From a bacterium (GTDB taxonomy: Bacteria > Zhuqueibacterota > Zhuqueibacteria > Zhuqueibacterales > Zhuqueibacteraceae), in assembly GCA_044869275.1 (NCBI GenBank), contig JBIOXB010000223.1, positions 32,001 through 96,000 on the forward strand: a stretch of DNA of 64,000 nucleotides. The letters run 5' to 3'. Numbering within the stretch: position 1 is the first letter of the stretch; the number at the start of each line of letters is the position of its first letter. Positions 1,309-58,328 of the stretch are shown here, in pieces. Under the pieces are notes generated by a model that saw nothing but the letters and a program-made list of their open reading frames with translations, did no database searches and had not been told where the DNA came from. The translations under genes were made by a program, and so were the position numbers.

Positions 1309-1468
1309 ACGAGCCTCATATGCCGCGCCTGGGCATGGGCGAATGCTCTGAAATCTGACAGCGCCGGACTGATGCTGGCGTGTATCTTTTTGAGGTCAAC
1401 TTTTTCATAGGCATGCACGAGCAAGTTTCTCATTGTTGCGTTTTGCTCTTAACGATGTGCGGGGACAT
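1305..1468 (-). pseudogene. hepT: HepT/DUF86 (HEPN RNase) toxin remnant with internal deletion
   Basis: Manual translation: MSPHIVKSKTQQ* (ATG 1468, overlapping the antitoxin end), then out of frame MRNLLVHAYEKVDLKKIH...RLV* (1433-1305) carrying the HEPN R-x4-H-x-Y motif. Confidence 0.75.
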
Positions 1469-1868
1469 TTTTCATCTCCTGCACGCGACGGGCGAGCACG
1501 GCATCACGAAAACGGCGAAGCGGCTCGGTGTCTTCGAAGATTCTGAACGCTCGGATTTTTTGCTCGAAAAACAATCCGGGTTTCGCTTCGTAAAGGGCTT
1601 TGCCTTTCTGAAAGATTTCGAGAAGTAGAACGGGATCGGTTACGGCATCAATAATGGCAACGTCGACCTCTTGCTGAAAAAGATCTTCCATTTCGCCATA
1701 CAATCGGATAACGTTTTCCCGCAAAGGTGCGGTGCGCGAAGACAGTGCGATGTCAACATCGCTGCGCGCCTTAGTTTTACCTGTTGCTTGCGAGCCAAAG
1801 AGGATCATTAAATCAATCCCGCGCTCTTGGCACCATGACGATAGTATTTGTTGGTCCAAATCAAGCAT
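1449..1868 (-). CDS. mntA: MntA-type minimal nucleotidyltransferase antitoxin
   Basis: LFGSQATGKTKARSDVDIA (GS-x10-DxD) and VDV; start probably ATG 1868 or GTG 1874 rather than 1937. Confidence 0.88.
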   Translation of the reverse strand: MLDLDQQILSSWCQERGIDLMILFGSQATGKTKARSDVDIALSSRTAPLRENVIRLYGEMEDLFQQEVDVAIIDAVTDPVLLLEIFQKGKALYEAKPGLFFEQKIRAFRIFEDTEPLRRFRDAVLARRVQEMKNVPAHR

Positions 1869-1972
1869 GATCACGGATTTTTGTTTTTGGGAGACGCTTG
1901 CTTGAAAGATAAGCGCAAATCTGTTGAGTTGCAACATGGATTCTTCACGATCAGATACCGCTAGAAGGTGCG

Positions 1973-3065: not shown

Positions 3066-4199
3066 ATGAAAATCGCGTATCTCTCCACTTTTTATCCCTT
3101 CCGCGGTGGTATCGCACAATTCAACGCCTCGCTGCTGCGCGCATTGGAAAAGCAGCACGAAATTCGCGCGTTCACGTTCACGCGACAATACCCCGCCTTG
3201 CTCTTTCCCGGTGCCACCCAGTATGTTACGTCCGGGGACGTGGTGGACAAAATCCCCGCTGCACCGCTTTTGGATACGATCAATCCGATTTCATATTTCA
3301 AAACCGCCGCGGCCATACAGAGGTTTCGTCCGGAGCTATTGGTGATGAAATTCTGGATGCCGTTCTTCTCCCCCGCGCTGGGAACCGTCGCCGGACGCCT
3401 GCGCAAAAATGGCACGCGCACCGTCGCTATTCTCGATAATCTAATTCCGCACGAGCGGCGGCCGGGCGATTTGCTTTTGATCAAGTACTTTCTGCGGCGC
3501 AATGACGGTTTTGTTGCCATGAGCAAGACCGTGGAAAGGGATTTGCTGAACATTCATTCGCGCGCGAAATACGTGCTCAGGCCGCATCCGCTCTACGATC
3601 ACTTCGGGCCGGCGCTTCCGTCGCCGGAAGCCAAGGCGCGGCTCGGTTTGCCGGCCGACAAACGCATTCTGCTTTTCTTCGGTTTCATTCGCGATTACAA
3701 AGGCCTGGACGATTTGATTCGCGCGACCGCGCATTTGCCCAGTGATTATTTGCTGGTGATCGCCGGCGAGGTTTATGGCAGTTTCGACAAATATCAAAAT
3801 TTGATTGCGGCAATGGGAACGGCAGACCGCATCAAGCTTTTCGTGCGTTATATTGACGATCGCGAAGTGCCGGATTTCTTCTCTGCCGCGGAGGTTTGTG
3901 TGTTGCCCTACAAGTCCGCCACACAAAGCGGCATCGTGCAGATCGCTTTCAATTTCAACTTGCCGGTGATCGTCACCGAGGTTGGCGGGTTGTCGGAAAT
4001 GGTCGAAGACGGAGAGACCGGCCTGATTTTGCGTGGACGCGAGCCACAAGAAATGGCAGGGCGCGTCATGGAATTTTTTCAAAAGAATATGCGTGCACAG
4101 ATGTCCAGAAATATTGCGATGCGGCGACCACAGTATGGCTGGGCGGGGTTTGCGGAGGCGATCTTGCAGCTCTATAAGAAGCTGGGGCCAGCAAAATAG
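3066..4199 (+). CDS. Glycosyltransferase family 4
   Basis: Start MKIAYL at 3066; FFGFIRDYKG, LPYKSATQSG, PVIVTEVGGL. Confidence 0.92.
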   Translation: MKIAYLSTFYPFRGGIAQFNASLLRALEKQHEIRAFTFTRQYPALLFPGATQYVTSGDVVDKIPAAPLLDTINPISYFKTAAAIQRFRPELLVMKFWMPFFSPALGTVAGRLRKNGTRTVAILDNLIPHERRPGDLLLIKYFLRRNDGFVAMSKTVERDLLNIHSRAKYVLRPHPLYDHFGPALPSPEAKARLGLPADKRILLFFGFIRDYKGLDDLIRATAHLPSDYLLVIAGEVYGSFDKYQNLIAAMGTADRIKLFVRYIDDREVPDFFSAAEVCVLPYKSATQSGIVQIAFNFNLPVIVTEVGGLSEMVEDGETGLILRGREPQEMAGRVMEFFQKNMRAQMSRNIAMRRPQYGWAGFAEAILQLYKKLGPAK

Positions 4200-4237
4200 C
4201 TTCGGATTGAGAACTAGAAGACTTCCCCATTTCTCAA

Positions 4238-4297
4238 ACTGCGAATGAACGCGAATAGACGCGAATTGAGAACATATTAGCGTACATTCGCGGTTTC
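4238..4297. repeat. REP-like imperfect palindrome (ACGCGAAT units / ATTCGCG)
   Basis: aactgcgaatgaacgcgaatagacgcgaat...attagcgtacattcgcggttt downstream of the GT4 stop. Confidence 0.6.
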
Positions 4298-4462
4298 AAA
4301 AAACGGGCAAGTTATCTAAACGGTGATCGTCAATGACCCCGAGCCAAGAAAAACGCCTTGTTTGCAATTTGGACGCGCAGTACATTATGATGGTTCTTGA
4401 ATGGAGTAGCTCCTCGCAGGACAGCGCGATGAAGTTCATTCCAAACTCCATGGGAGGTCGTC

Positions 4463-4681
4463 ATGGCAGAGCAAAACTGGGAAGCGGTTGAAGTTTATTG
4501 CCGTTATGATGAATGTGCGGAGCAGATTCAAGGGTTGGACAACAAACCGCGGCTTTCAAAAAGGAAGATGAGATTTACCGGCCAGGAGTTCTGGGGCGCG
4601 GCGGTGTTCACCTGTCCGCTGTGTGGACGCCAGCGCAAGTTCAAGGAGCGAACATTCGGCACGGGCTTCACCGAGATTTAG
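4463..4681 (+). CDS. Small Cys4 (putative zinc-ribbon) protein
   Basis: RBS GGGAGG; C-x4-C...C-x2-C; paralogous to the C-terminus of the downstream TIR protein with many synonymous differences. Confidence 0.8.
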   Translation: MAEQNWEAVEVYCRYDECAEQIQGLDNKPRLSKRKMRFTGQEFWGAAVFTCPLCGRQRKFKERTFGTGFTEI

Positions 4682-4754
4682 TTCAACCTTTTGCGGCACA
4701 TCAGATTGGGAACGAGCTTCTTCGCATTTTCCTTCTCTCTTTGAGGAGATAAAT

Positions 4755-5537
4755 ATGCTGGTTTTTCTCAGCTGTTCTGGTGAAAGGAGTAAATCCGTTG
4801 CTGACGAATTGGCAAAATGGCTTCGTAAAGTAATACAAGCGGTTGAGCCTTGGATATATACCGATATCGAAAAAGGAGTCAAATGGGGTCCGGAAATATT
4901 TAGAAAACTGAAAGATTCCAAAGTTGGAATTCTGTGTGTGACAAAAGAGAATCTTGACTCAAGATGGATACTTTTCGAAGCTGGGGCTCTCTCAGTTAAG
5001 CAAAACGCTTACGTTTGCACACTTCTCTTAGACGTTGAGCCAACAGATGTAAAACAACCTCTTGCCCAATTTGAAGCCACCAAGATTAACAAAGAAGATT
5101 TTTATCGGCTTCTTCAGACAATTAATCGGGCAGTGGAGGAATCGGGGGAACGAGCTTTGGGTGAATTTGATCTAAAAGAATTATATGATTACCATTGGCA
5201 TCTTCTAGATGATCGATTTAAAAAGATCAACGAGGCGGGGGCATCGATTCCAATGCCGATCCGTTCTGAGCGAGAAATGCTGCAAGAGATTCTCGAATTG
5301 GTGAGGAGTCAAGTACGAGATACGAATTGGGAACCAGTTGAAGTTTATTGCCGTTATGATGAATGTGCGGAGCAGATTCAAGGATTTGACAACAAGCCGC
5401 GGCTTGCAAAAAGGAAAATGCGATTCACGGGTATTGATGATGGCGGCGCAGCGGTGTTTGCTTGTCCAGTTTGCGGTAGCGAGCGTAGATTCAAAGAGCG
5501 AACGTCAGGCAGAGGCTTTGCTGAGATTTATTCTTGA
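4755..5537 (+). CDS. TIR-domain protein with C-terminal Cys4 domain
   Basis: RBS GAGGAG then ATG 4755; VFLSCSG...DIEKG..W...GILCVT...SRWILFEAGAL (TIR_2 with catalytic Glu); C-terminal ~70 aa duplicate the upstream gene. Confidence 0.87.
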   Translation: MLVFLSCSGERSKSVADELAKWLRKVIQAVEPWIYTDIEKGVKWGPEIFRKLKDSKVGILCVTKENLDSRWILFEAGALSVKQNAYVCTLLLDVEPTDVKQPLAQFEATKINKEDFYRLLQTINRAVEESGERALGEFDLKELYDYHWHLLDDRFKKINEAGASIPMPIRSEREMLQEILELVRSQVRDTNWEPVEVYCRYDECAEQIQGFDNKPRLAKRKMRFTGIDDGGAAVFACPVCGSERRFKERTSGRGFAEIYS

Positions 5538-5579
5538 GTTTTCTGTCATTACTGGTTACCTAAAAACTGCTAGTAGCGC

Positions 5580-6599
5580 ATGATTGGCTCTTCGTTTACA
5601 GCATTTTCGCAAAGTTCTCACGCCGTGCGTCGGCCCGCATTTTCTGTACGCGGGATTCCGGTCTATGGCGATATCATTCTTGCGCCCATGGCGGGCTTTT
5701 CCGATCTGCCCTATCGCTTGATCGCGCGCGATTTCGGCTCGGCCATGAGCTACACCGAGTTCGTATCGACCGACGGCCTCCTGCACGGCAATGAAAAGAC
5801 CATGCGCATGCTCGATTTCGACCGGCGCGTCGAGCAGCCCATGACCTTTCAAGTGTTCGGCAGCGATGAGAACGTTATTGTCGAAGCCTGCAAAAAAATC
5901 GAGCAGCTCGGCCCGACGATTATTGATTTGAACATGGGCTGCTCGGTGGCCAAAGTTTCTGGTCGCGGCGCAGGCGCGGGATTGTTAAAAGAGCCGCCTA
6001 AAATCGGCCGCATCTTTGCCCGGCTCTCCAAAGAATTATCCGTGCCGGTGACGGGAAAGATTCGGTTGGGTTGGGATTGCAATTGTCGCAACTATCTGGA
6101 AGTTGCCAAAATTCTGGAGGACAACGGCGCAGCGTTACTGGCCGTGCACGGCCGCACCAAGTCACAAGCCTATGAGGGCCAAGCTGACTGGAGCGCGATT
6201 GCGGAAATCAAACAAACACTGAGAATTCCCGTACTCGGCAACGGCGATGTGAAATGTGTCGCCGATATCGATCGCATCAAACGCCTCACCGGCTGCGACG
6301 GCGTGATGATCGGCCGTGCGGCCATTGGCAATCCGTGGATCTTTGCACGTAAAGACCGCCATGAAGTGGTGTTCGAGGAAAAAGCCGCACTTATTCGCCG
6401 GCATCTGAGCTTGATGCTGGGCTACTACGGCCCGGAATACGGCCTGGTGCTGTTTCGCAAGCACGTGGTCAAATACATCACCGAAGTGCGCGGCGCCGCG
6501 GCGTTGCGTGGCAGCTTTCTCACCTGCGAGCGCGCGGAAGACTTCATTGCCTTGTTGGAAGAAGCCGAGGCACAGCAGCGGCAGTTGTTAGCGGCGTGA
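5580..6599 (+). CDS. dusB: tRNA-dihydrouridine synthase B
   Basis: LAPMAG, IDLNMGC, KIRLGW, VHGRT, GNGDV, GVMIGRAAIGNPWIF. Confidence 0.93.
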   Translation: MIGSSFTAFSQSSHAVRRPAFSVRGIPVYGDIILAPMAGFSDLPYRLIARDFGSAMSYTEFVSTDGLLHGNEKTMRMLDFDRRVEQPMTFQVFGSDENVIVEACKKIEQLGPTIIDLNMGCSVAKVSGRGAGAGLLKEPPKIGRIFARLSKELSVPVTGKIRLGWDCNCRNYLEVAKILEDNGAALLAVHGRTKSQAYEGQADWSAIAEIKQTLRIPVLGNGDVKCVADIDRIKRLTGCDGVMIGRAAIGNPWIFARKDRHEVVFEEKAALIRRHLSLMLGYYGPEYGLVLFRKHVVKYITEVRGAAALRGSFLTCERAEDFIALLEEAEAQQRQLLAA

Positions 6600-48392: not shown

Positions 48393-48772
48393 CGCATGGC
48401 GTTTGAATTCTATCAACGAGATCATCAGCGTCGTGAAATCTTATTCATTATACCAGGTGATTTGAAAATTCACTGCAGTTACTCCCCCCATCTCAACCAG
48501 GGGACCCAAAGGGATCAGTCCTGCAAAAAAGCGAGTTCTGGCGTCCAAATTTATCACCTCCCAGCGAGTGAGTGTCTATTTAGAGTCGTAAGGCGTCTTT
48601 TGTGCGGTGAAATTCCATGCCGAGGAGGCGAAACGGAGAACGGCGGGCAGAGCATGCTTAAGCCAGGGTCAAATTTTAGTAAAGCTCGGAAGAAACACTT
48701 GCAATCAATCGAACTGCGAATCCACTAAGCGCTCCCATGCGCTCATGCAACATCACAATGGAGGCAATTCTC

Positions 48773-51700
48773 ATGGCGAACAAAATCTATGCATTGCTGG
48801 TGGGCATCAATGACTATGCTCCGGAAATCGGCAGGCTGGCCGGATGTCTCAATGATGTGGATCATTTTAAGGACTATTTGACCAGCGCTTTTGACAAAGC
48901 CAGTCTCGCCATTGAAGTGCTCAAAGAAGGCGAGGCCACGCGCGACAACATCATCAGACTGTTCCGCGCCCATCTCGGCCAGGCGAAGGCTGGTGACGTG
49001 GCCGTGTTCCAATATTCCGGCCATGGCGCGCGTTGGGCCGCTGCGAAGGAATTCAAAGAGTTCTATCCCGATGGCAAAGACGAGGGTCTGGTATGTCACG
49101 ACAGCCGCCGCAAAGACGGCACCTACCCCTTTGACCTGGCCGACAAAGAATTGGCGATGCTGCTTGCCGAGGTCGCAGCCAAAGATCCTCATCTTGCCGT
49201 TATTTTGGATTGCTGCCATTCCGGCTCCGGCACGCGCGACGTGGATGCGTTCACGCATTTGAAAGCGCGGCAAACCCACGAGGTTGCCGTGGAGCGTCCT
49301 CTCGACAGCTATCTTGACGGCCATTATGCCAAGCTGCGCCAACAGGGAAAAAAGTTGTCGATCCCGAGAAGCAAGCATATTTTATTGGCTGCTTGCGACC
49401 GCAAACAAAAGGCCTATGAGGCCACAGACCGCAGCGGGCTCTTTACCAGCACGCTGCTCAAGGTGTTGGAAAAATCCGGCAGCGATATCACTTATGCCGA
49501 TCTGTTCATGCGCTGCCGGGCGGAGATTCGCAAGGAAGCCGACAATCAGACGCCGCAATTCGAGGCCAACGAGAAGTTCAACGCCCTTGGCGGCTTTCTC
49601 GGGCGTAAGGCTTCTCACACAGCGCCTCGCTTCAGCGTGTATTTCAAGGATGGCAACTGGACTATCGATGCCGGTGCCTTGCACGGACTTCCCACTGCGC
49701 CGGAAAAAAGCGTCGGCTTGGCGCTTTATCCGGAAAATGAGCAGGCGCGTTTAGCCGGGCACGCGTCGACGGTTCAAGTGGGGCCGCAGAAGAGCGAGCT
49801 GCAGCTGGATTTTACCGGCGATCAAGCGGCGCGCTATTATGCCGAAGTCACCAGTCTACCGGTTGCGCCGATTCCGGTTTATGTCGATGGCGATGAGAAT
49901 GGCAAGACCATTCTCCGCAAGGCACTCAACCCTTCCATGGGCGTCGATTTAACTGACGTCGCCGAGGGCACCCGTTATGCGATCACCGCGCAAGAGGGAG
50001 TATTTCTGCTGAAACAGCGGGAATTGGATTTGCTCATCCAGGGCGTCAAGGGCGTGCTCGTGCGCGAGCGTAGCACGGGAAAAGAGGTGGCGACATATTC
50101 CGAAGAGTCCGCGCAAGTGGCGCTTGGCATTGTCAAGCAGGTTGCGCAATGGGAAAGAAGCCTTGCGCTGCAGAATCATGGAACGAAAATGGACACCTCG
50201 CTGGTTGACTTCATTTACACCGAGCAATTAAATGCCGGAAAGGAGTATGTCCATCCCTCGGGCGAGATTACGCTCGATTTGGTGAAATCCAAGGAACAAT
50301 GGCAAGAGATTCGGGGCAAATTCAAAGCGCGGAATAGCACTGAGCAAACGTTGCATTTTATTCTCGCTTATTTCTCCGCGTCGTATGGCATTCACATTTT
50401 GCGCAACGAAGAGGTTCCCCCGGGCAAAGAATTCGTTACTTTGTGGGGGGAGGATGAGAAGGACTATTTTTATTTGGAAGATCATGCCAATGAATCGCTG
50501 GAGAATTTCAAGCTGATTGTCAGCACTGAGCGGGTCGACGACTTTTTGTTGAGCCAGGATGATTTAGAACTCGGCAAGATCATCTCCTCTTTTCGTGCCG
50601 TGGGCACGATCAAGCCGATGAAAAAGTTGGTACATGAGAATGAATGGTTTACCAAAAGTATCCGCGTCAAAGTCGTGCGGCAACTCGACCAAGTGGGCGC
50701 GAAAGACGCGGGTCTGGCTAAAGGCAAGATCGTCGTCAAAGGCCATCCTACGCTCAAAGCCAATTTGAGTTTGAGCGCCGCCAAGGCTCCTTCTCGCAGC
50801 ATCGGGGAAGGAACTGATTTCTTCAAGGCTTTCGAGCGACAAGGCTTGGAGATGCTCAACTTTGCCGGCACGCGCGGCGATAACGAGAGCATATTGGAAT
50901 TGACCGATATTGAAAACGCTGAAGCGCTGGCAAAGAACCCGCTGGAGATTGACGTGAATGTCCCGCTCAATGCCGACGAGGGGATTCTCCCCCTGGTGTT
51001 CGACGGCCAGCACGTTTTGCTCGGCGGGGATACGTATAAAGACGAGCAGGGCAACACCCATATCAGCATCGACCACATTCCCGAGGTGCCGGACAACCGC
51101 CGCAGCGTTGGCAAGGCATTGAAGCTGTACTTTTTCAAAACTTATCTCAAGCAGGATAGCGTCAATCAATTGCGCTGGGTGGAGTACAAAGCCGACGGCA
51201 CGATAGCGCAGCACAAGACTATGATTGCCGAGAAAGTGAACGCGGCGCAGAACGTGGTGGTGCTGATGCACGGCCTCATCGGCGACACCGAAAACCTTGC
51301 CAAAACTCTGCGCATGATCAATGCCGGCGGTACAAGCCTCGATCAAAAATTCGATCTGGTGCTGACCTATGACTATGAAAACCTCAGCACGCCGCTGGCA
51401 GAGACGGCGCTCGATCTCAAAAAGAAGTTGGAAGCGGCCGGATTCGGCGCGAATGACAACAAAAAGCTTACACTCTTGACGCATTCCATGGGCGGCCTGG
51501 TGGGGCGCTGGTTTATCGAGCGCGAAGGCGGCAACACCATGGTCGATCATCTCGTCATGTGTGGCACGCCCAATCAGGGCTCGCCGTTTGGCAAAATCGA
51601 CGCGGCGCGCAAAATCTTGAACGTTTTGACCGGCGTGGCGATGAATTATGTTCCCGCGCTCATCCCGTTCAACGGCGCCATCATATTCCTGCTGAACCGT

Positions 51701-52057
51701 TCGAAAAAAATCACGCCCACGCTGGAGCAAATGAACTCGTCTTCCGAATTTATCACCACGCTCAACAGCAGCGGCGATCCCGGCATCCGCTACACCCTTC
51801 TCGCCGGGGACGTGGAGGCGTATCAGGAACCCTCGGATCAATTCTTTCAGCAGCTGTTGGCGAAAGCTGGAAAAGGTTTTGTGTTCAGCGCCCTTTTTGG
51901 CAGTGGCGCACACGATCTAGCGGCCGGCGTGGAGAGCGTGCTCGGCATCGCGGGCTCGCGCAATCCCATGCCCAAGCGCGGCAATGTCGCCTGCCATCAT
52001 TTGAATTATTTTGTTTCCGAAGCTGGGCAGAAGGCGCTGGCGGGAGTGGAGTGGTGA
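48773..52057 (+). CDS. Caspase-family (peptidase C14) protease fused to C-terminal alpha/beta-hydrolase
   Basis: RBS GGAGG; ALLVGINDY, LAGCLND, YSGHG (His), LDCCHSG (Cys); C-terminal MHGL, THSMGG, GTPNQGS, CHHLNYF. Confidence 0.9.
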   Translation: MANKIYALLVGINDYAPEIGRLAGCLNDVDHFKDYLTSAFDKASLAIEVLKEGEATRDNIIRLFRAHLGQAKAGDVAVFQYSGHGARWAAAKEFKEFYPDGKDEGLVCHDSRRKDGTYPFDLADKELAMLLAEVAAKDPHLAVILDCCHSGSGTRDVDAFTHLKARQTHEVAVERPLDSYLDGHYAKLRQQGKKLSIPRSKHILLAACDRKQKAYEATDRSGLFTSTLLKVLEKSGSDITYADLFMRCRAEIRKEADNQTPQFEANEKFNALGGFLGRKASHTAPRFSVYFKDGNWTIDAGALHGLPTAPEKSVGLALYPENEQARLAGHASTVQVGPQKSELQLDFTGDQAARYYAEVTSLPVAPIPVYVDGDENGKTILRKALNPSMGVDLTDVAEGTRYAITAQEGVFLLKQRELDLLIQGVKGVLVRERSTGKEVATYSEESAQVALGIVKQVAQWERSLALQNHGTKMDTSLVDFIYTEQLNAGKEYVHPSGEITLDLVKSKEQWQEIRGKFKARNSTEQTLHFILAYFSASYGIHILRNEEVPPGKEFVTLWGEDEKDYFYLEDHANESLENFKLIVSTERVDDFLLSQDDLELGKIISSFRAVGTIKPMKKLVHENEWFTKSIRVKVVRQLDQVGAKDAGLAKGKIVVKGHPTLKANLSLSAAKAPSRSIGEGTDFFKAFERQGLEMLNFAGTRGDNESILELTDIENAEALAKNPLEIDVNVPLNADEGILPLVFDGQHVLLGGDTYKDEQGNTHISIDHIPEVPDNRRSVGKALKLYFFKTYLKQDSVNQLRWVEYKADGTIAQHKTMIAEKVNAAQNVVVLMHGLIGDTENLAKTLRMINAGGTSLDQKFDLVLTYDYENLSTPLAETALDLKKKLEAAGFGANDNKKLTLLTHSMGGLVGRWFIEREGGNTMVDHLVMCGTPNQGSPFGKIDAARKILNVLTGVAMNYVPALIPFNGAIIFLLNRSKKITPTLEQMNSSSEFITTLNSSGDPGIRYTLLAGDVEAYQEPSDQFFQQLLAKAGKGFVFSALFGSGAHDLAAGVESVLGIAGSRNPMPKRGNVACHHLNYFVSEAGQKALAGVEW

Positions 52058-52092
52058 GGCTGGATGCCGGATCCTGGATGCTGGATCCTGGG
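52058..52092 (+). repeat. Heptamer tandem repeat (CTGGATC / CTGGATG)
   Basis: ggctggatgccggatcctggatgctggatcctggg immediately after the caspase stop. Confidence 0.65.
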
Positions 52093-52479
52093 GGCCGTGC
52101 ACGGTTAACTTGAGAATCACACCCTCAACCATGTCATTCTGAAAGAATCTTGCCACGAGCTGGGCACAATGCTTAGACGGTGCTTTATCCGAGCACCTGG
52201 GAAGCTTCAGCCCGTGCGAGCACTCTCGTTTCACCGCTCAGCGGTGGAACGCATGCAATGACGCTCTGCGTCCCAGAATGCTAGTCCATTGCTCCATTAC
52301 AAGTGAAATCTGTGCTTAGAGAAGTTTTCTGTTTTGATTTCCGTGGGAGTTCAGAGTAGCCGGAATTCGAAGCACAAAGCTCAAAGGGTGTTTTGAGATC
52401 TGCAATTCGAATTTTTATTTCGCTAAGCGCCTGTCCCGGATTTATTGGCGAGCTGAAAACCGATGCCCTGCGGGCGGCG

Positions 52480-52552
52480 CCAACGGATAGATCAAGACCA
52501 ACGGATGAAGGGACGAAAATGTTTTGTCCGTTGGCCTTAATCTATCCGTTGA
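52480..52552. repeat. CCAACGGAT/ATCCGTTG palindromic element, copy B1
   Basis: ccaacggatagatcaagaccaacggat...tccgttggccttaatctatccgttg; similar to 58348-58420. Confidence 0.75.
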
Positions 52553-52628
52553 TGAAAAAAGCCAGAGTATTATATTGAATTTAATTTTCTAATTTGCCTA
52601 ACCCAGTTTATCAAAAGAAGGAACTGCT

Positions 52629-53498
52629 ATGATCACCGAAGACTCATTGAAACAAATTATGCCTAAACTCCCGGACGCCAAGCGTGCGGCATTGCTGCCG
52701 GCATTGCAGAGCGCAATGAATGAGTTCGGTGTGAACACGCCGAAGCGCGAAGCCGCGTTTCTGGCGCAAATCGCCCACGAGTCCGGGGAATTAACCGTCT
52801 TTGCCGAGAACCTGAATTACTCGGCCAAAGGCTTGATGGCAACCTGGCCCAAACGCTTCCCCGATCCCGCCACAGCGCAGAAGTATGAGCGGAATCCGGA
52901 GAAGCTGGCCAACTACGTTTATGCGAATCGCGTTGGCAACGGCAATGAAGCGAGCGGCGACGGTTGGCGGTTTCGCGGCCGTGGCCCCATTCAAATTACC
53001 GGACGCGAGAACTATCAAAAATATGGCAGTCGACTGAATGTCGATATCATCAATAATTCCGACAAAGCCGCCACGCCGGAGGTCGGGTTTCGCGTTGCGG
53101 GTTTGTATTGGAAAGAAAACGGCTTGAATGAGCTTGCCGACAGTGAAATGTTCGAGACCATCACGAAGCGGATCAATGGCGGAACCAAAGGCCTCGAGGA
53201 GCGCAGGCAATACTACACACGCGCGAAAACTGTGTTGGGCGTGCCGCTCTCTCGCGGCATGGCGATACCGGAATCCATGCAAGACATTGATCTCGTTCCA
53301 GAGTTCACGCGCGGGCGCGAGGCGCAAGAAGATACCAAGCCGCCGGTCAGGAAAACACGCAAGGCGCGCGTGAAAAAAAGCAAACGTGCGGCCGCAAAGA
53401 AAAAAGTTGCCAAGAAGAAAGTGGCCAAGAAAACCGCCGGCAGCAAAACGCGCGCACGGGCAAAGGCAAAGCCCAAAGCCGCCAAGCGCCGGAAATAA
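52629..53498 (+). CDS. Glycoside hydrolase family 19 (endolysin/chitinase-like) with Lys/Ala-rich histone-H1-like tail
   Basis: FLAQIAHES, ENLNYS, GDGWRFRGRGPIQITGRENY, TKRINGG; tail KKKVAKKKVAKK. Confidence 0.92.
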   Translation: MITEDSLKQIMPKLPDAKRAALLPALQSAMNEFGVNTPKREAAFLAQIAHESGELTVFAENLNYSAKGLMATWPKRFPDPATAQKYERNPEKLANYVYANRVGNGNEASGDGWRFRGRGPIQITGRENYQKYGSRLNVDIINNSDKAATPEVGFRVAGLYWKENGLNELADSEMFETITKRINGGTKGLEERRQYYTRAKTVLGVPLSRGMAIPESMQDIDLVPEFTRGREAQEDTKPPVRKTRKARVKKSKRAAAKKKVAKKKVAKKTAGSKTRARAKAKPKAAKRRK

Positions 53499-53546
53499 GC
53501 ATTGAGGCATTATAGTCGAATTCGTACGCCATATGGCGCTCAAAGT

Positions 53547-53669
53547 CAGAACAAAATTCTGAAAATTTCTTCGCCAATGAAGGAGAAGCGACCAACGAAT
53601 TCAGGAAAATCCGTTGGTCGTTTTTTGATCCGTTGGAGCGTTTTTGGTCTAAAGTTGCTCCGTAAGGAG
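53547..53669. repeat. CCAACGGAT/ATCCGTTGG palindromic element, copy A2
   Basis: Direct match to 42546-42669. Confidence 0.8.
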
Positions 53670-54086
53670 TTTTGGTTTTCAGCTTGTCTGAAAACATCGG
53701 AAGACAGAAAGATGGAGGACAGAAAAATGTTTGCCGTTTGCTCCATGCTGTCATTGTCCACTTCCCTGGCTTAATCGCGAACGCCATTTTTCTGTCTTTC
53801 ATTTTTCTGTCTTGGCCTTTGGTTAAGCCAATTGAACAATTCCAAGATAAGAATTCTCTATCTCTCTTTGTTCAGCCGCCCGCAGAGCTTCGATTTCTAG
53901 CTTGTTTGAAAATCTGAGGTAGAAGGTTAGTCATCTGAAACAGGTTCTCTCCCACGGAAATGGAACTGCCACGGAAAAATTGTTTTCAATTCCGTGTGAG
54001 TTCCATTTCCGTGGGCGATTTTTGGGCTTGGGCTTCAATTTGTTTCGCACTCAGTTTTTATAGCTTGCTTACGTGCAAAATAACCT

Positions 54087-57000
54087 ATGGTACAATCAAA
54101 CGATCAGCAAAACACCAAACCCGTCATCTTCCTCGCCTTCGCCCAAGACCGCGTCGAAGGCGGCGCGTATTTGCGCAACCTGCCCATCGAGCTGGACGGC
54201 ATTCTAGAAGCGTTGCAAAAGGCGGAGCAGGCAGGGCTGTGCGAGGTGAAACATCGATCCAATACCACGGTCAAGAATATTCTCGACATCTTCCAGCAGT
54301 ATCAGGATCGCATCGCCATTTTTCATTACGGCGGACATGCTGACAGCTACGAGCTTTTGCTCGAGTCCTTGACCGGCGAGCACGCGATGGCGCACAGCGA
54401 AGGGCTGGTTTCTTTTCTTGCCAAACAAAAAAGTCTGCGGCTCATTTTCCTAAACGGCTGCTCTTCTCGGCAGCAGGCATTGGACTTGACCGAGGCGGGC
54501 GTGCCGGCCGTAATCGGCACTTCGCAAAAAATCGACGATGAGATCGCAACCAATTTGTCAGGGCGCTTTTACAAAGGCCTCGCTGCCGGCCTCTCGCTTG
54601 ATCGCGCCTGGGCGGAAGCCATCGATCAAATCAAAGTGGAGAAAGGCACCAGCAATACCCGCGCACTGCATTGGAAAGGCAAAGTTGAAGCCAGCGACGG
54701 TATTCCGTGGGACATCTATTATCGCAAGGGCGCGGAGATTGTTAAGGAATGGAATCTGCCGGCGGCTGCGAATCAACCTCTGTTTGGCTTGCCGCTGCCG
54801 GAAGTTTATTACCGCAAGTTGCCGGCTGCGCCGTTTCTCTGGTTGAATGATTTCAGGAGAGAAGACGCCGCCATCTTTTTCGGCCGCGGCGCCGAGATTC
54901 GGAAACTGTACACGCAGTTGACCACCGGCATGCAACCGATCATTCTGTACTACGGAAAAGCCGGCGTGGGAAAATCTTCCCTGCTGCAAGCCGGCCTGGC
55001 GCCGCGCATTGAAAACGATTATGCCGTCAAATATATCTGCCGCCTCCCGGCGAAAGGATTGACCGGCACTTTGCTGCAGGCCCTGCAAGAAGTAGGTGAC
55101 GAGCTCGGACTGCCGCCGGTTGAACCTGCCGAGAAAGACACCCTCCGCACCAAAATCGAGGAGCTGCAAAAAGCTTTGGAGGGCAGCGCGGGATTCACCC
55201 GGCAAGTGCTGGAAAGCGAGCTGCAAAAACTCACCGCGCTTGCCGGCGAGAGCCTTTTGTTTTCAGCACATTGGCGGCGGATCGAAGATAAAACCAACCG
55301 GCCATTAGTGGTCATGCTCGATCAAGTGGAGGAAAAATCTACCCGCCCCGCGCCTGACGACAGAGAATCTGCCGATGAATTGGAGATCTTCCTCGAGACC
55401 GTGCGGAGTATTTTTGACCAACAAGACCTGCCCCTGCGGGGAAAACTCATTCTCAGTTGCCGCGAAGAATATCAGCCCGCGATGCGTGCGGCCTTGCAAG
55501 CGTTTTCACTGCCTTTTGCGGAAGCATTTCTTCCGCCACTGGGCTGGCAGGGAATTGTCGAAGCGACGGAAGGTGTGACCACGCATCCTTCGACTCGCGA
55601 TCAGTATCACCTGGAAATTGAAAATTACAAGGGTAGTAATTTGCCGGAGATCATCGCCGACGATATGCTGGAAAGCGAGGAATCTCCGCTTGCGCCGATG
55701 CTGCAAGTGGTGCTGACCGAGTTATGGAGAGGCGCAGTTAAAGAAAACACCAAAGCGCCGCGTCTGAGCGTGCGGCAATATCAGGAGCTCAAGCAATCGG
55801 GCGCCAGCATGGGTGAATTTTTCAAACAGCGCATGGCGGAAGTGCAGGAGTGGCAGAAAACCGTCGTGACGTCCGGTTTGACACTGGACTTGCTCTACCG
55901 GCATATCACGCCCGCCGGTGCTGCCGCGAGCCTGAGCCGGGAGCAACTGCATGACATCTACTGCGACCGCGAGCAGGTCATTGATCAGCTTATGGCGAAG
56001 TGCCAAGACCTTTATCTGTTGACTGATTTTCAGCTGCGCGGCACCAGCCTGGCGCATCATCTGCTCGCGCCGGTGGTGATCAAGGAATACAGCAATTCCG
56101 TTATGCCCGGCCAGCAAGCCGCCCGCATTTTGAACAGCAAGATCGAGGAATTTCGTGCCAATGAAAAAGACATCTGGCTGAATGATGCGGATTTGGAAAT
56201 TGTGGAAAACGGCAAAGCCGGCATGCGGCAGTTGCATGCCGATGAAGAGAAGCTGTTGCAGATCAGCCGGGAGCGCAAGGCGCAGCGGGAAAAAGAGCGA
56301 AAGCGCAATCGCGTCATACGCAACGTTTTGGCAACTTTCATTTTCCTGTTTGCCATATTAGCCGGTTGGCAATGGCAAGTGTCGGAGCGCAACTATAAGC
56401 AAGCCAAGGCGAGCCAACTGGCGTTCATCGCGGGCGAGGCTTTCAATTCCGACAACACGAAAGCGCTGCGCATTGCCGAAGCGGCTTACGCGATTTTGGG
56501 TGAGCATTCGCCGGCGGCGGTGACGCGAACGTTGAGTGAGATTTTTCATTCCCAAGACCTGAGGCCGTTTTATGCGGCGAATTTTCCTCACGATGAACCC
56601 GTCAATACGGCGGTGTTTTCGCCGGATGGCCAGCAAATTCTCACCGCCTCGGAAGGCGGGTCTGCCAGGCTCTGGGATCGGCGCGGAGAATTGATCCACA
56701 CTTTTGATCATGAGGGCTACGACGTCACCTCCGCCGCCTTTTCCCCCAATGGCAAGCAAATTCTTACGCTCGCCAACGATATCGTCAGGCTTTGGGAAAT
56801 GAATGGGAAACTTGTCGATGGCGATACGCTGCAACCCGAGCAAGCAACCGACTTAGCCGATTTATCGACCGACGGCATGCGGATTCTAAAAGTGTTTGCC
56901 GGTAGCGATGATGAAAAATACCGCGCGCTGATCCATCGTCTCAAGCAAGAAAATGGAATTGCCGAAGTCATTCCCGCTTCGAACCGGCAGCGGATTCTCA

Positions 57001-58328
57001 CCATCTCATCCGATGGCACTGTGACGCTGCTGAATGGGGAAGGGAAAATCCTGAAGGCAATTGATAGCAGCGTAGTTTCTGCCGCTTTGTCGCCCGACGG
57101 CAAGCGCCTGTTGACCGTGGCCTTCGACAGCCTCAGCACCATCCGGTTTTGGGACGAGCAGGGAAGTTTCCTCGGAAGTTTCAAGTATAGAGGAGAAGTG
57201 AACAAAGCCGCTTTCTCCCCGGACGGCAGGCAGATTCTCACCGCCGCCGCCGACCATACGGCAAAACTCTGGGAGGTTTCACAGAAATTCACCCAGCACT
57301 TGCCGCGCCACAGTTTGGGAGTCTCCACCGCGGTGTTTTCTCCAGATGGGAAGCGTATCCTCACTGCTTCACACGATGGATTCGCCCGGCTTTGGGATGA
57401 ACAAGGAAATCCGCTCGACAGTCTCAAGCATGGCGGCGTGGTGAACGCGGCGGTTTTTTCACCTGAAGGCAATCGAATTCTAACGGCGGCTAGGGACGGC
57501 ACTGCCCGGCTGTGGCTGCGCGATGAGGCGCGAGTGGTCAACTTGCCGCATCGGGGAGAAGTCAACTCCGCGCTGTTCTCTCCCGACAATGGCAGCCGGA
57601 TTCTCACGGCTTCAAGCGACAGCACCGCCAGATTATGGACTGGAAACGGCGTTCCGATTGATACACTTGAGCATCACGGTGAGGTGCGTGCCGCAGTCTT
57701 TTCGCCCGACGGCCGGCAAATTCTGACGGCGTCATCCGACGGCACGGCGACATTGTGGTGGGCAAGCGGCGTTTTGATCAGGATATTCAAGCATGATGAC
57801 GAAGTTATTTCGGCAGTCTATTCGCTGGACGGGAAGCGGATTTTGACCGCCTGTGCGGATGGCGCGGTAAGATTATTTGCGGTCAATGGTGATTCGCTTG
57901 GAACTTTTAAGCATCATGATAAAATCAAGCTCGCGGTTTTTTTGCCTGAGGGCCGGCGCCTGTTGACGGCAAGCAGTATGGTCTGGCTCTGGGACGAAGC
58001 GGGGAAGCCGCTCGTTAGTGTCGCACACACTGCGGCGGTCACCTCGGTGGATTTCTCCCCCGATGGCAAGCACCTGCTTACGGCTTCAATCGACCAAAGC
58101 GCCAAGCTGTGGAACCTACAAGGCGAGTTGCAGGCAGATTACGACAAACACGAACTGCCGGTGAATTCGGCGCGTTTTTCACCCGACGGCGAAAAAATTA
58201 TCACCGCCTCGGTCGATGGGCAAGTGATGATCTGGTGGACACCGCGAGCCATTTACGATTGGCTGAAAACCGCGCCGCTTTACCGGATCACGCGGCAGGA
58301 AGAAGAATTGTATGGAATCGTGCAGTAG
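54087..58328 (+). CDS. CHAT protease - STAND (nSTAND1-like) NTPase - TM - WD40 repeat protein
   Basis: FHYGGHA and FLNGC dyad, FFGR, YGKAGVGKSS (Walker A), MLDQVEE (Walker B), TM VLATFIFLFAILAGW, many FSPDG..ILTAS.D.TA.LW repeats. Confidence 0.92.
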   Translation: MVQSNDQQNTKPVIFLAFAQDRVEGGAYLRNLPIELDGILEALQKAEQAGLCEVKHRSNTTVKNILDIFQQYQDRIAIFHYGGHADSYELLLESLTGEHAMAHSEGLVSFLAKQKSLRLIFLNGCSSRQQALDLTEAGVPAVIGTSQKIDDEIATNLSGRFYKGLAAGLSLDRAWAEAIDQIKVEKGTSNTRALHWKGKVEASDGIPWDIYYRKGAEIVKEWNLPAAANQPLFGLPLPEVYYRKLPAAPFLWLNDFRREDAAIFFGRGAEIRKLYTQLTTGMQPIILYYGKAGVGKSSLLQAGLAPRIENDYAVKYICRLPAKGLTGTLLQALQEVGDELGLPPVEPAEKDTLRTKIEELQKALEGSAGFTRQVLESELQKLTALAGESLLFSAHWRRIEDKTNRPLVVMLDQVEEKSTRPAPDDRESADELEIFLETVRSIFDQQDLPLRGKLILSCREEYQPAMRAALQAFSLPFAEAFLPPLGWQGIVEATEGVTTHPSTRDQYHLEIENYKGSNLPEIIADDMLESEESPLAPMLQVVLTELWRGAVKENTKAPRLSVRQYQELKQSGASMGEFFKQRMAEVQEWQKTVVTSGLTLDLLYRHITPAGAAASLSREQLHDIYCDREQVIDQLMAKCQDLYLLTDFQLRGTSLAHHLLAPVVIKEYSNSVMPGQQAARILNSKIEEFRANEKDIWLNDADLEIVENGKAGMRQLHADEEKLLQISRERKAQREKERKRNRVIRNVLATFIFLFAILAGWQWQVSERNYKQAKASQLAFIAGEAFNSDNTKALRIAEAAYAILGEHSPAAVTRTLSEIFHSQDLRPFYAANFPHDEPVNTAVFSPDGQQILTASEGGSARLWDRRGELIHTFDHEGYDVTSAAFSPNGKQILTLANDIVRLWEMNGKLVDGDTLQPEQATDLADLSTDGMRILKVFAGSDDEKYRALIHRLKQENGIAEVIPASNRQRILTISSDGTVTLLNGEGKILKAIDSSVVSAALSPDGKRLLTVAFDSLSTIRFWDEQGSFLGSFKYRGEVNKAAFSPDGRQILTAAADHTAKLWEVSQKFTQHLPRHSLGVSTAVFSPDGKRILTASHDGFARLWDEQGNPLDSLKHGGVVNAAVFSPEGNRILTAARDGTARLWLRDEARVVNLPHRGEVNSALFSPDNGSRILTASSDSTARLWTGNGVPIDTLEHHGEVRAAVFSPDGRQILTASSDGTATLWWASGVLIRIFKHDDEVISAVYSLDGKRILTACADGAVRLFAVNGDSLGTFKHHDKIKLAVFLPEGRRLLTASSMVWLWDEAGKPLVSVAHTAAVTSVDFSPDGKHLLTASIDQSAKLWNLQGELQADYDKHELPVNSARFSPDGEKIITASVDGQVMIWWTPRAIYDWLKTAPLYRITRQEEELYGIVQ

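Follow-up and report, generated by a model that had tools for sequence, protein, structure and literature searches.

Why does a TIR protein end in a copy of the small protein encoded next to it? The window, by which we mean the whole 64,000-nucleotide stretch analyzed from a genome of the Zhuqueibacteraceae, contains a gene for a 72-residue protein with four cysteines (Cys4), followed by a TIR gene whose C terminus repeats it. A sequence-only reading of the locus had offered two answers: that the free domain caps the TIR fusion as an antitoxin, or that the fusion is an integrated decoy monitoring attack on the small protein. Taken together, these two readings are partly supported by the present analysis, as the decoy gains support and the antitoxin cap is weakened.

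The TIR gene carries a diverged copy of its neighbor

The GT4 glycosyltransferase gene, the 72-residue ORF, the 260-residue TIR ORF, and dus all lie on the plus strand (Table 1). The free Cys4 gene (219 nt) has GGGAGG upstream, at 4452-4457. For the fusion gene (783 nt), the start is most likely the ATG at 4755 and not the GTG at 4623 given by the ORF lister, because the ribosome-binding site GAGGAG (4743-4748) lies 6 nt upstream of this ATG and the homologues start at the same residue.

Table 1 Features between the GT4 gene and dus, in window positions.
Feature	Position	Strand	Basis or remark
GT4 glycosyltransferase, left flank	3069..4199	+	context
Free Cys4 gene, 72 aa	4463..4681	+	unannotated family, resident; C-x4-C ... 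C-x2-C
47-nt stretch	4487..4533	+	identical to 5337-5383
Spacer, 73 nt	4682..4754	+	holds the TIR ribosome-binding site; left part of the strain-variable segment
TIR-Cys4 fusion gene, 260 aa, AT-rich	4755..5537	+	ORF, GC3
TIR_2 domain, residues 3-112	4761..5090	+	Pfam TIR_2, E 1.1e-9; Foldseek TIR fold
Catalytic Glu75 codon	4977-4979	+	WILFEAG
Helical extension, residues 113-190, typical of the TIR family	5091..5324	+	PADLOC TIR-TM match; ends in a conserved RSxRExLxEIL helix
Fused Cys4 copy, residues 191-258	5325..5528	+	repeat alignment
Spacer and first 23 dus codons	5538..5648	+	113 other letters there in the TIR-less strain
dus, tRNA dihydrouridine synthase, right flank	5580..6599	+	context

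Residues 5 to 72 of the small protein align with residues 191 to 258 of the TIR protein, and the two copies (4475-4678 and 5325-5528) are identical at 160 of 204 nucleotides and 53 of 68 amino acids. The proposal that the small ORF recurs as the C terminus of the next gene therefore held, coordinates included, and the longest identical run, put at about 47 bp, is exactly 47 nt. Counting gave 25.2 synonymous and 18.8 nonsynonymous differences (dS 1.10, dN 0.13, dN/dS 0.12, Fisher p 3e-9), in agreement with the claim that both copies are under selection. For the fused tail compared with the orthologue in the metagenomic locus L005, dN/dS was 0.155. The two copies have different histories, as GC3 is host-like in the free gene (0.64) and TIR-like in the fused copy (0.38). 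No third Cys4 copy was found in this genome by tblastn and a profile search.

The fused copy keeps all four cysteines and a nearly unchanged N-terminal half, and its aromatic tip is gone. The changes are concentrated in its second half, where IDDG replaces QEFW and Ser replaces Phe65; Asp43 and Ser65 occur in none of the 34 other family rows.

Over the first 30 codons of the repeat, synonymous change is scarce. With expectations taken from the flanking genes and the codon window picked post hoc, the free gene and the L005 orthologue show 1 synonymous difference where 11.0 are expected (28 conserved codons, P 1.3e-5), the fused tail and the L005 orthologue show 4 where 10.4 are expected (P 0.006), and the two window copies show 3 where 10.5 are expected (P 0.001). 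Synonymous divergence in the second half is ordinary, and no 30-codon window as low was found in six flanking genes (minimum pS 0.19 vs 0.06). The conserved region spans roughly 100 nt (window 4475-4575 and 5325-5425; L005 5013-5113) and includes, near 4512-4532, an imperfect inverted repeat of the form 9-3-9. The L005 orthologue shares the stretch that is identical in the window pair, so it is not peculiar to that pair. Judged from these alignments, the conservation may reflect either a DNA-level element or recent exchange, and it would act also where there is no TIR.

Could the repeat have misled the assembly? X1 contigs break at the 47-nt repeat, and the TIR-bearing piece has a depth of 9.6 compared with 12.1 and 12.7, as an assembly artefact would predict. 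We nevertheless regard an artefact as very improbable: the copies differ at 44 of 204 nucleotides with a strong synonymous bias, an X1 piece comprises the 3' half of the free gene, the TIR, and the start of the tail, with matching pieces in X2, and a second TIR protein, P0159, shows the architecture independently. Overlapping X1 contigs support the window arrangement and X2 supports it in part; X1 may be the source run of the assembly, X2 comes from the same study, and X3 comes from a different one.

The free gene is a resident host gene

At E 0.001, the Cys4 family has 34 representatives, most of them free proteins of 68 to 104 residues, with the pattern C-x4-C, KRxM, and CPVCG; by eye, no TIR was seen among the 34. 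AlphaFold predicts the free protein to be a small beta-hairpin domain (pLDDT 80), and the same secondary-structure elements are predicted for the fusion tail. From its four cysteines, the domain probably binds zinc or another metal, and it may have a binding surface, to judge from its basic residues and the aromatic tips of its hairpins. In three representatives the domain lies, by eye, ahead of a hydrophobic, probably membrane, segment. P0010, P0021, P0032, P0039, and P0173 begin with the Cys4 domain, followed by a hydrophobic segment and, in part of the set, by an additional domain, which hints at a membrane-adjacent role for these proteins. One of the 34, P0012, is a spurious repeat.

Across strains and relatives, the small gene is repeatedly found alone. 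In L005, GT4, a small gene 81% identical to that of the window, and dus follow one another with no TIR between. In run X3, a contig of depth 4 passes from 4679 to 5649 through 113 other letters, and its flanks differ from the window at 1 of 92 and 3 of 101 letters (97-99% identity); this joint reveals a near-identical strain without the cassette and with a different dus start. G004 and G007, genomes of the same family, hold a Cys4 gene at another locus (macro domain, Uma2-like gene by eye, Cys4 gene, membrane protein), and no match to the window TIR was found in either. Since the free gene occurs without the TIR in L005, G004, G007, and the X3 strain, it did not evolve as the partner of the window TIR, and the antitoxin branch of the sequence-only reading is weakened accordingly. 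Nor does the pair show the linkage of a type II toxin-antitoxin system, in which both genes are present wherever either occurs. The free gene is a resident host gene with a life of its own.

Within the phylum, the Cys4 family occurs in 3 of 167 genomes and the window TIR family in 3 of 167, both together only in G000, the genome of the window. Around 21 dus loci from 20 relatives, GT4 is in the flank of 6 and the Cys4 gene in none. The contents of the GT4-dus gap vary: in G010 it holds a gene of 252 aa, in G003 an ORF resembling a nucleotidyltransferase, and the same-genus genome G001 (unpublished) has GT4 and dus with neither the Cys4 gene nor the TIR between. The question raised earlier, whether the two-gene arrangement recurs, thus has a divided answer: the fusion itself recurs (P0159 and P0076), but its arrangement beside the free gene was seen in the window genome only.

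Other elements lie nearby. A minimal nucleotidyltransferase gene (1449-1937, minus strand; Pfam Polbeta) is absent from the matching part of L005, and the ORF in the G003 gap is similar to it. Upstream of the small gene, at 4204-4328, there is a 125-bp palindromic, REP- or MITE-like repeat, found at 36 loci spread over 27 contigs in G000 (median identity 79%) and multi-copy in runs X1-X3; it folds as one long hairpin (z -4.1), the window copy lacks about 10 nt, and it is not apparent in the L005 gap, which is shorter. Far downstream (48737-58328), two large ORFs (1106 and 1413 aa) have N termini that look caspase-like and CHAT-like by eye, with a glycoside-hydrolase-19-like gene between them; a conflict system is possible there.

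The TIR fusion is a strain-variable insert of foreign composition

The TIR had been described as AT-richer than its flanks, and this is borne out by its GC3 of 0.37. The genome median is 0.67, and a value this low is reached by 0.19% of the 3212 long ORFs. Together with the TIR-less strain, this composition marks the fusion as a foreign, AT-rich, strain-variable insert. The best supported history is import, in which the AT-rich spacer, the TIR-Cys4 gene, and the dus start would have been recombined behind the resident gene. Import of an older fusion is favored because synonymous sites are saturated between the two copies, whereas the X3 strain is 97-99% identical, and because the insert is AT-rich. 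The stretch that runs from the end of the fusion gene into dus is probably the right end of the imported segment, since the TIR-less strain has other letters there. Loss of the cassette from the TIR-less strains is a possible alternative to import.

The TIR is related to a tested anti-phage protein

The TIR domain scores 39.3 bits against a Pfam TIR_2 cut-off of 28, and its best Foldseek matches are the TIRs of SPARTA and plant NLRs. The catalytic glutamate is kept, as had been noticed from the sequence: Glu75 is invariant in 25 of 25 and 30 of 30 aligned rows. TIRs in general consume NAD and are activated by clustering, and by analogy the window TIR may cleave NAD.

The PADLOC TIR-TM model (PDLC03016) matches residues 1-187 with E 1e-49, over model positions 1-192 of 293. 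This model fits the TIR of the P2_AC1 system end to end, and the 2TM and 1TM models match the two neighbors of that TIR. The P2_AC1 three-gene locus (2TM, 1TM, and TIR) protected E. coli from lambda, LF82_P8, and P2, according to the part of the source that describes it (PMC9122126). The window TIR belongs to the same family (39% identity over 127 aa, catalytic Glu kept), and the last 100 model positions are replaced in the window by the Cys4 domain. The likeness to Thoeris, CBASS, and Pycsar effectors drawn in the sequence-only reading was too loose; the closest tested relative is this TIR. No P2_AC1-type transmembrane genes lie beside the window TIR, whose neighbors are the Cys4 gene, GT4, and dus, and the partner models PDLC02978 and PDLC02977 gave 0 matches in the 94%-complete genome, where the controls were silent too.

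In nearly all of the best 119 of 746 TIR homologues, similarity ends at about residue 187 and an unrelated tail follows. These tails are hypervariable, as the 114 of at least 30 aa (P0159 included) fall into 93 clusters, and most look like low-information helical sequence, mostly without a recognized domain. In the window TIR, 12 of 70 conserved columns do not follow the consensus (W7C, S35Y, and Q107E among them), and the 118 others reach a maximum of 9, a count to be read with the bias of best hits to a query towards consensus; 12 of 70 departures were also counted for the P0159 TIR. These departures may indicate decay.

G000 has four other TIR_2 matches. An AT-rich pair (C167:127-3341, minus strand, GC3 0.39) encodes a 231-aa TIR_2 protein and an 832-aa neighbor, both beginning with a double CxxC zinc-ribbon-like motif, and is a possible homotypic pair of the effector-associated domain (EAD) kind. 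Two SIR2_2 genes on other contigs (C6:28834-33002 and C70:36502-38235) are candidate defence loci, one followed by a large P-loop protein and one in a lower-GC3 ORF. Phage mEp390 (L042 1995-2813) carries a lone TIR of the same family on the opposite strand, between its lysis genes and Q.

Fusions to host domains recur in the family

P0159 (309 aa) has the same kind of TIR followed by two tandem Cys4 domains, and its cluster mate P0076, among the best 119 of 746, ends in half a Cys4 domain, a truncated form. Full TIR-Cys4 fusions are thus known twice, and pairing with a free gene was seen once. Over 157 aa, the TIR of the window protein (P0001) shares 60% identity with that of P0159, and the two group together in FastTree (0.96, 120 rows) and in IQ-TREE (92/85, 33 rows, below the starred threshold). 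P0159 is therefore a probable sister in these trees; both are long branches, and a count of shared rare residues did not single P0159 out (6, tied with 7 others). In the first P0159 domain too, by eye, the aromatic tip is missing, and so is the C-terminal end.

The fused copy is 76% identical to the host's own allele and 48% identical to the second P0159 domain. In the best Cys4 tree it joins the host's free allele and close orthologues (82/78), and the two P0159 domains sit together, a pattern that suggests replacement by, or conversion to, the local allele. Matching of the fused copy to the host allele is not proven, as an AU test did not reject the alternative of the fused domains as one clade (p 0.059).

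These data bear on whether the tail matters at all. In a donor lineage, the TIR could have landed ahead of a Cys4 gene and been read through into it; recombination near dus would later have brought the fusion into this genome as a hitch-hiker, and the tail would do nothing for a TIR that may itself be decaying. The hypervariable tails, the differing GT4-dus gaps, and the 12 consensus departures fit such incidental capture, as does the Cys4 tree, in which the tail branch has roughly ten times the length of the free-gene branch (0.33-0.36 vs 0.02-0.04), and a low dN/dS can predate fusion. We consider this account unlikely, because a second, probably sister TIR carries the same domain twice, rare as it is in the phylum, and because the tail, having drifted to its TIR-like GC3, has kept an open frame, the four cysteines, and its low dN/dS against L005, which argues for selection while fused.

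Host domains are found in other tails. Four of the best 119 of 746 (P0112, P0131, P0133, and P0153) have as their tail an insertion domain of the RNA polymerase beta-prime subunit. The tails align with residues 965-1127 of E. coli beta-prime, with chain 2auk, which is 190 aa long (E 8e-22), and with the window genome's RpoC from residue 941 to just before DITGGLPRV; we take this domain to be SI3. The four TIRs form one clade (0.96) with tails 47-79% identical, so this fusion appears to be old and maintained, and the group has a cluster mate from a Nitrospirota assembly. The beta-prime-fused clade (the four with P0171 and P0172) ends at the domain boundary and was not found in viral contigs; it is a cleaner decoy candidate than the window gene. 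In a domain scan of 33 proteins chosen for long tails, P0046 and P0121 carried one and two treble-clef zinc fingers and P0079 a histidine kinase. A relative in G010 has a DUF4241 tail (DUF4241 locus L007 1498-2454).

Comparison with known defence systems

Single-gene TIR systems of E. coli provide defence, depend on the NADase site for it, and react to a range of phage proteins, as far as the source describes them (PMC11350192); the extra domains it describes are TM, AAA, TPR, and DUF4238, with no host-protein copy, a distinction drawn by description only. For Thoeris, no effector gene of the ThsA type, or of any other type, lies adjacent to the TIR, and no ThsB/ThcB model exceeded its cut-off (ThcB4 only, 12 bits vs 220). 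Searches for STALD and ThsA_Macro were blank, with controls silent too.

EADs come closer. As described in the source (PMC7159879), these are small non-enzymatic domains that occur twice in adjacent genes, one of them on an effector, with the adjacent copies closest to each other; one copy is on the core component of an NTPase system, and the domains are mostly all-helical. In the window, the second copy is instead a free 72-aa protein, beta-rich, with four cysteines, and usually alone, and neither copy is on the core component of an NTPase system. The copies are closest to their neighbor at 76% and in the best tree, with the AU result given above for the alternative.

This resemblance raises the explanation that the free Cys4 protein binds the fused copy, either as a cap that keeps the TIR off (antitoxin or guard) until a phage eliminates the small protein, or as an adaptor that recruits the TIR in the manner of an EAD. 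Adjacent copies nearer each other than copies elsewhere, one of them on an enzymatic effector, are part of the EAD pattern as that source presents it; the two tandem P0159 domains could be a free and a fused copy joined, and the N-terminal half shared by the copies is nearly invariant. This half is, however, equally conserved in the TIR-less L005, the free gene stands without the TIR in four other settings, and no NTPase ternary system is apparent among the neighboring ORFs. A homotypic cap or adaptor thus seems to us unlikely.

RAZR (PMC13017515) and Rip1 (PMC13434031) resemble the window gene in joining a small sensor domain to an effector that needs ordered assembly; RAZR has a zinc finger, the effectors of both differ from the window TIR, and the parts of the sources consulted describe no host paralogue of the sensor. 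We found no significant sequence or fold match between either and the Cys4 domain. By the same logic, the Cys4 tail could bind a phage structural protein or ring directly and template TIR assembly, its likeness to a host protein reflecting only the origin of the module. The RAZR zinc finger binds phage rings, sets specificity, and is the most variable part of the protein, according to the same part of that source; there are clusters in which a TIR is joined to another zinc ribbon (DUF5679 and Zn_Ribbon_1; scores under 0.9, leads only), and the tandem duplication in P0159 would raise avidity. We find a direct sensor of this kind quite unlikely, as such a sensor varies fast, whereas the fused domain has stayed similar to a conserved host protein that stands alone and hardly varies in its N-terminal half, and in 0 of the 34 family representatives is Cys4 fused to another defence effector.

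Taken by their defining features, these comparisons leave the TIR-Cys4 gene as a real, selected feature that is not an AC1 system, a Thoeris system, or an EAD system.

The fused domain as a possible bait

Plant immune receptors offer well-documented cases of integrated decoys. The window protein shares with plant NLR decoys the joining of an immune protein to a host-domain copy and differs in being bacterial, in having no NLR module, and in that its bait is putative. We tentatively prefer the explanation that the 260-aa protein is a one-piece anti-phage sensor-effector, in which the TIR would be coupled to a bait acquired by copying a small resident protein of the host. The fused copy would also be bound by a phage protein whose normal partner is the free Cys4 protein, the bound bait would cluster TIRs through the helical extension, and clustered TIRs would cause NAD loss or make a nucleotide signal. 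The free gene would be the ordinary host target and not a dedicated antitoxin, and the cassette would have come from a related lineage, recombining in next to the resident gene, its right end falling within the dus start.

A bait is favored because the family has a defence member, because the fusion is old and recurrent and its partner is an independent host gene, and because the fused copy keeps one surface and loses another. The fused domain is a copy of an independent host protein with a predicted stand-alone function, and its changes at positions 43 and 65, with the cysteines kept, are those expected of a bait dropping a host function. The decoy branch of the sequence-only reading gains from the recurrence in P0159 and P0076, the tested anti-phage family member, the resident free gene, and a dN/dS far below 1; a fusion unique to this assembly with dN/dS near 1, named there as the contrary outcome, is not what we found, given P0159 and the value of 0.12. 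Against the decoy, P0076 shows that the tail can be cut, and the tails of the family are mostly low-information helical sequence, so capture can be incidental.

A wider form of the hypothesis is possible but more doubtful. The TIR clade could be a platform for integrated decoys, a constant TIR with a helical stalk that captures host domains attacked by phages, with tails matched to the host allele. This would cover the Cys4 protein, the beta-prime insertion domain, the treble-clef zinc fingers, and DUF4241, and the tails would form a catalogue of phage targets. In the open-access literature, supplementary tables aside, we found no bacterial TIR with a copy of a host-protein domain as bait. Natural materials are at hand in the TIR-less allele, the double-domain form, and the polymerase-domain relative. 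If the hypothesis is true, one simple family would show bacteria building sensors by copying host targets onto a TIR, and its tails would point to phage-host interactions, one of them at an unannotated 72-aa protein.
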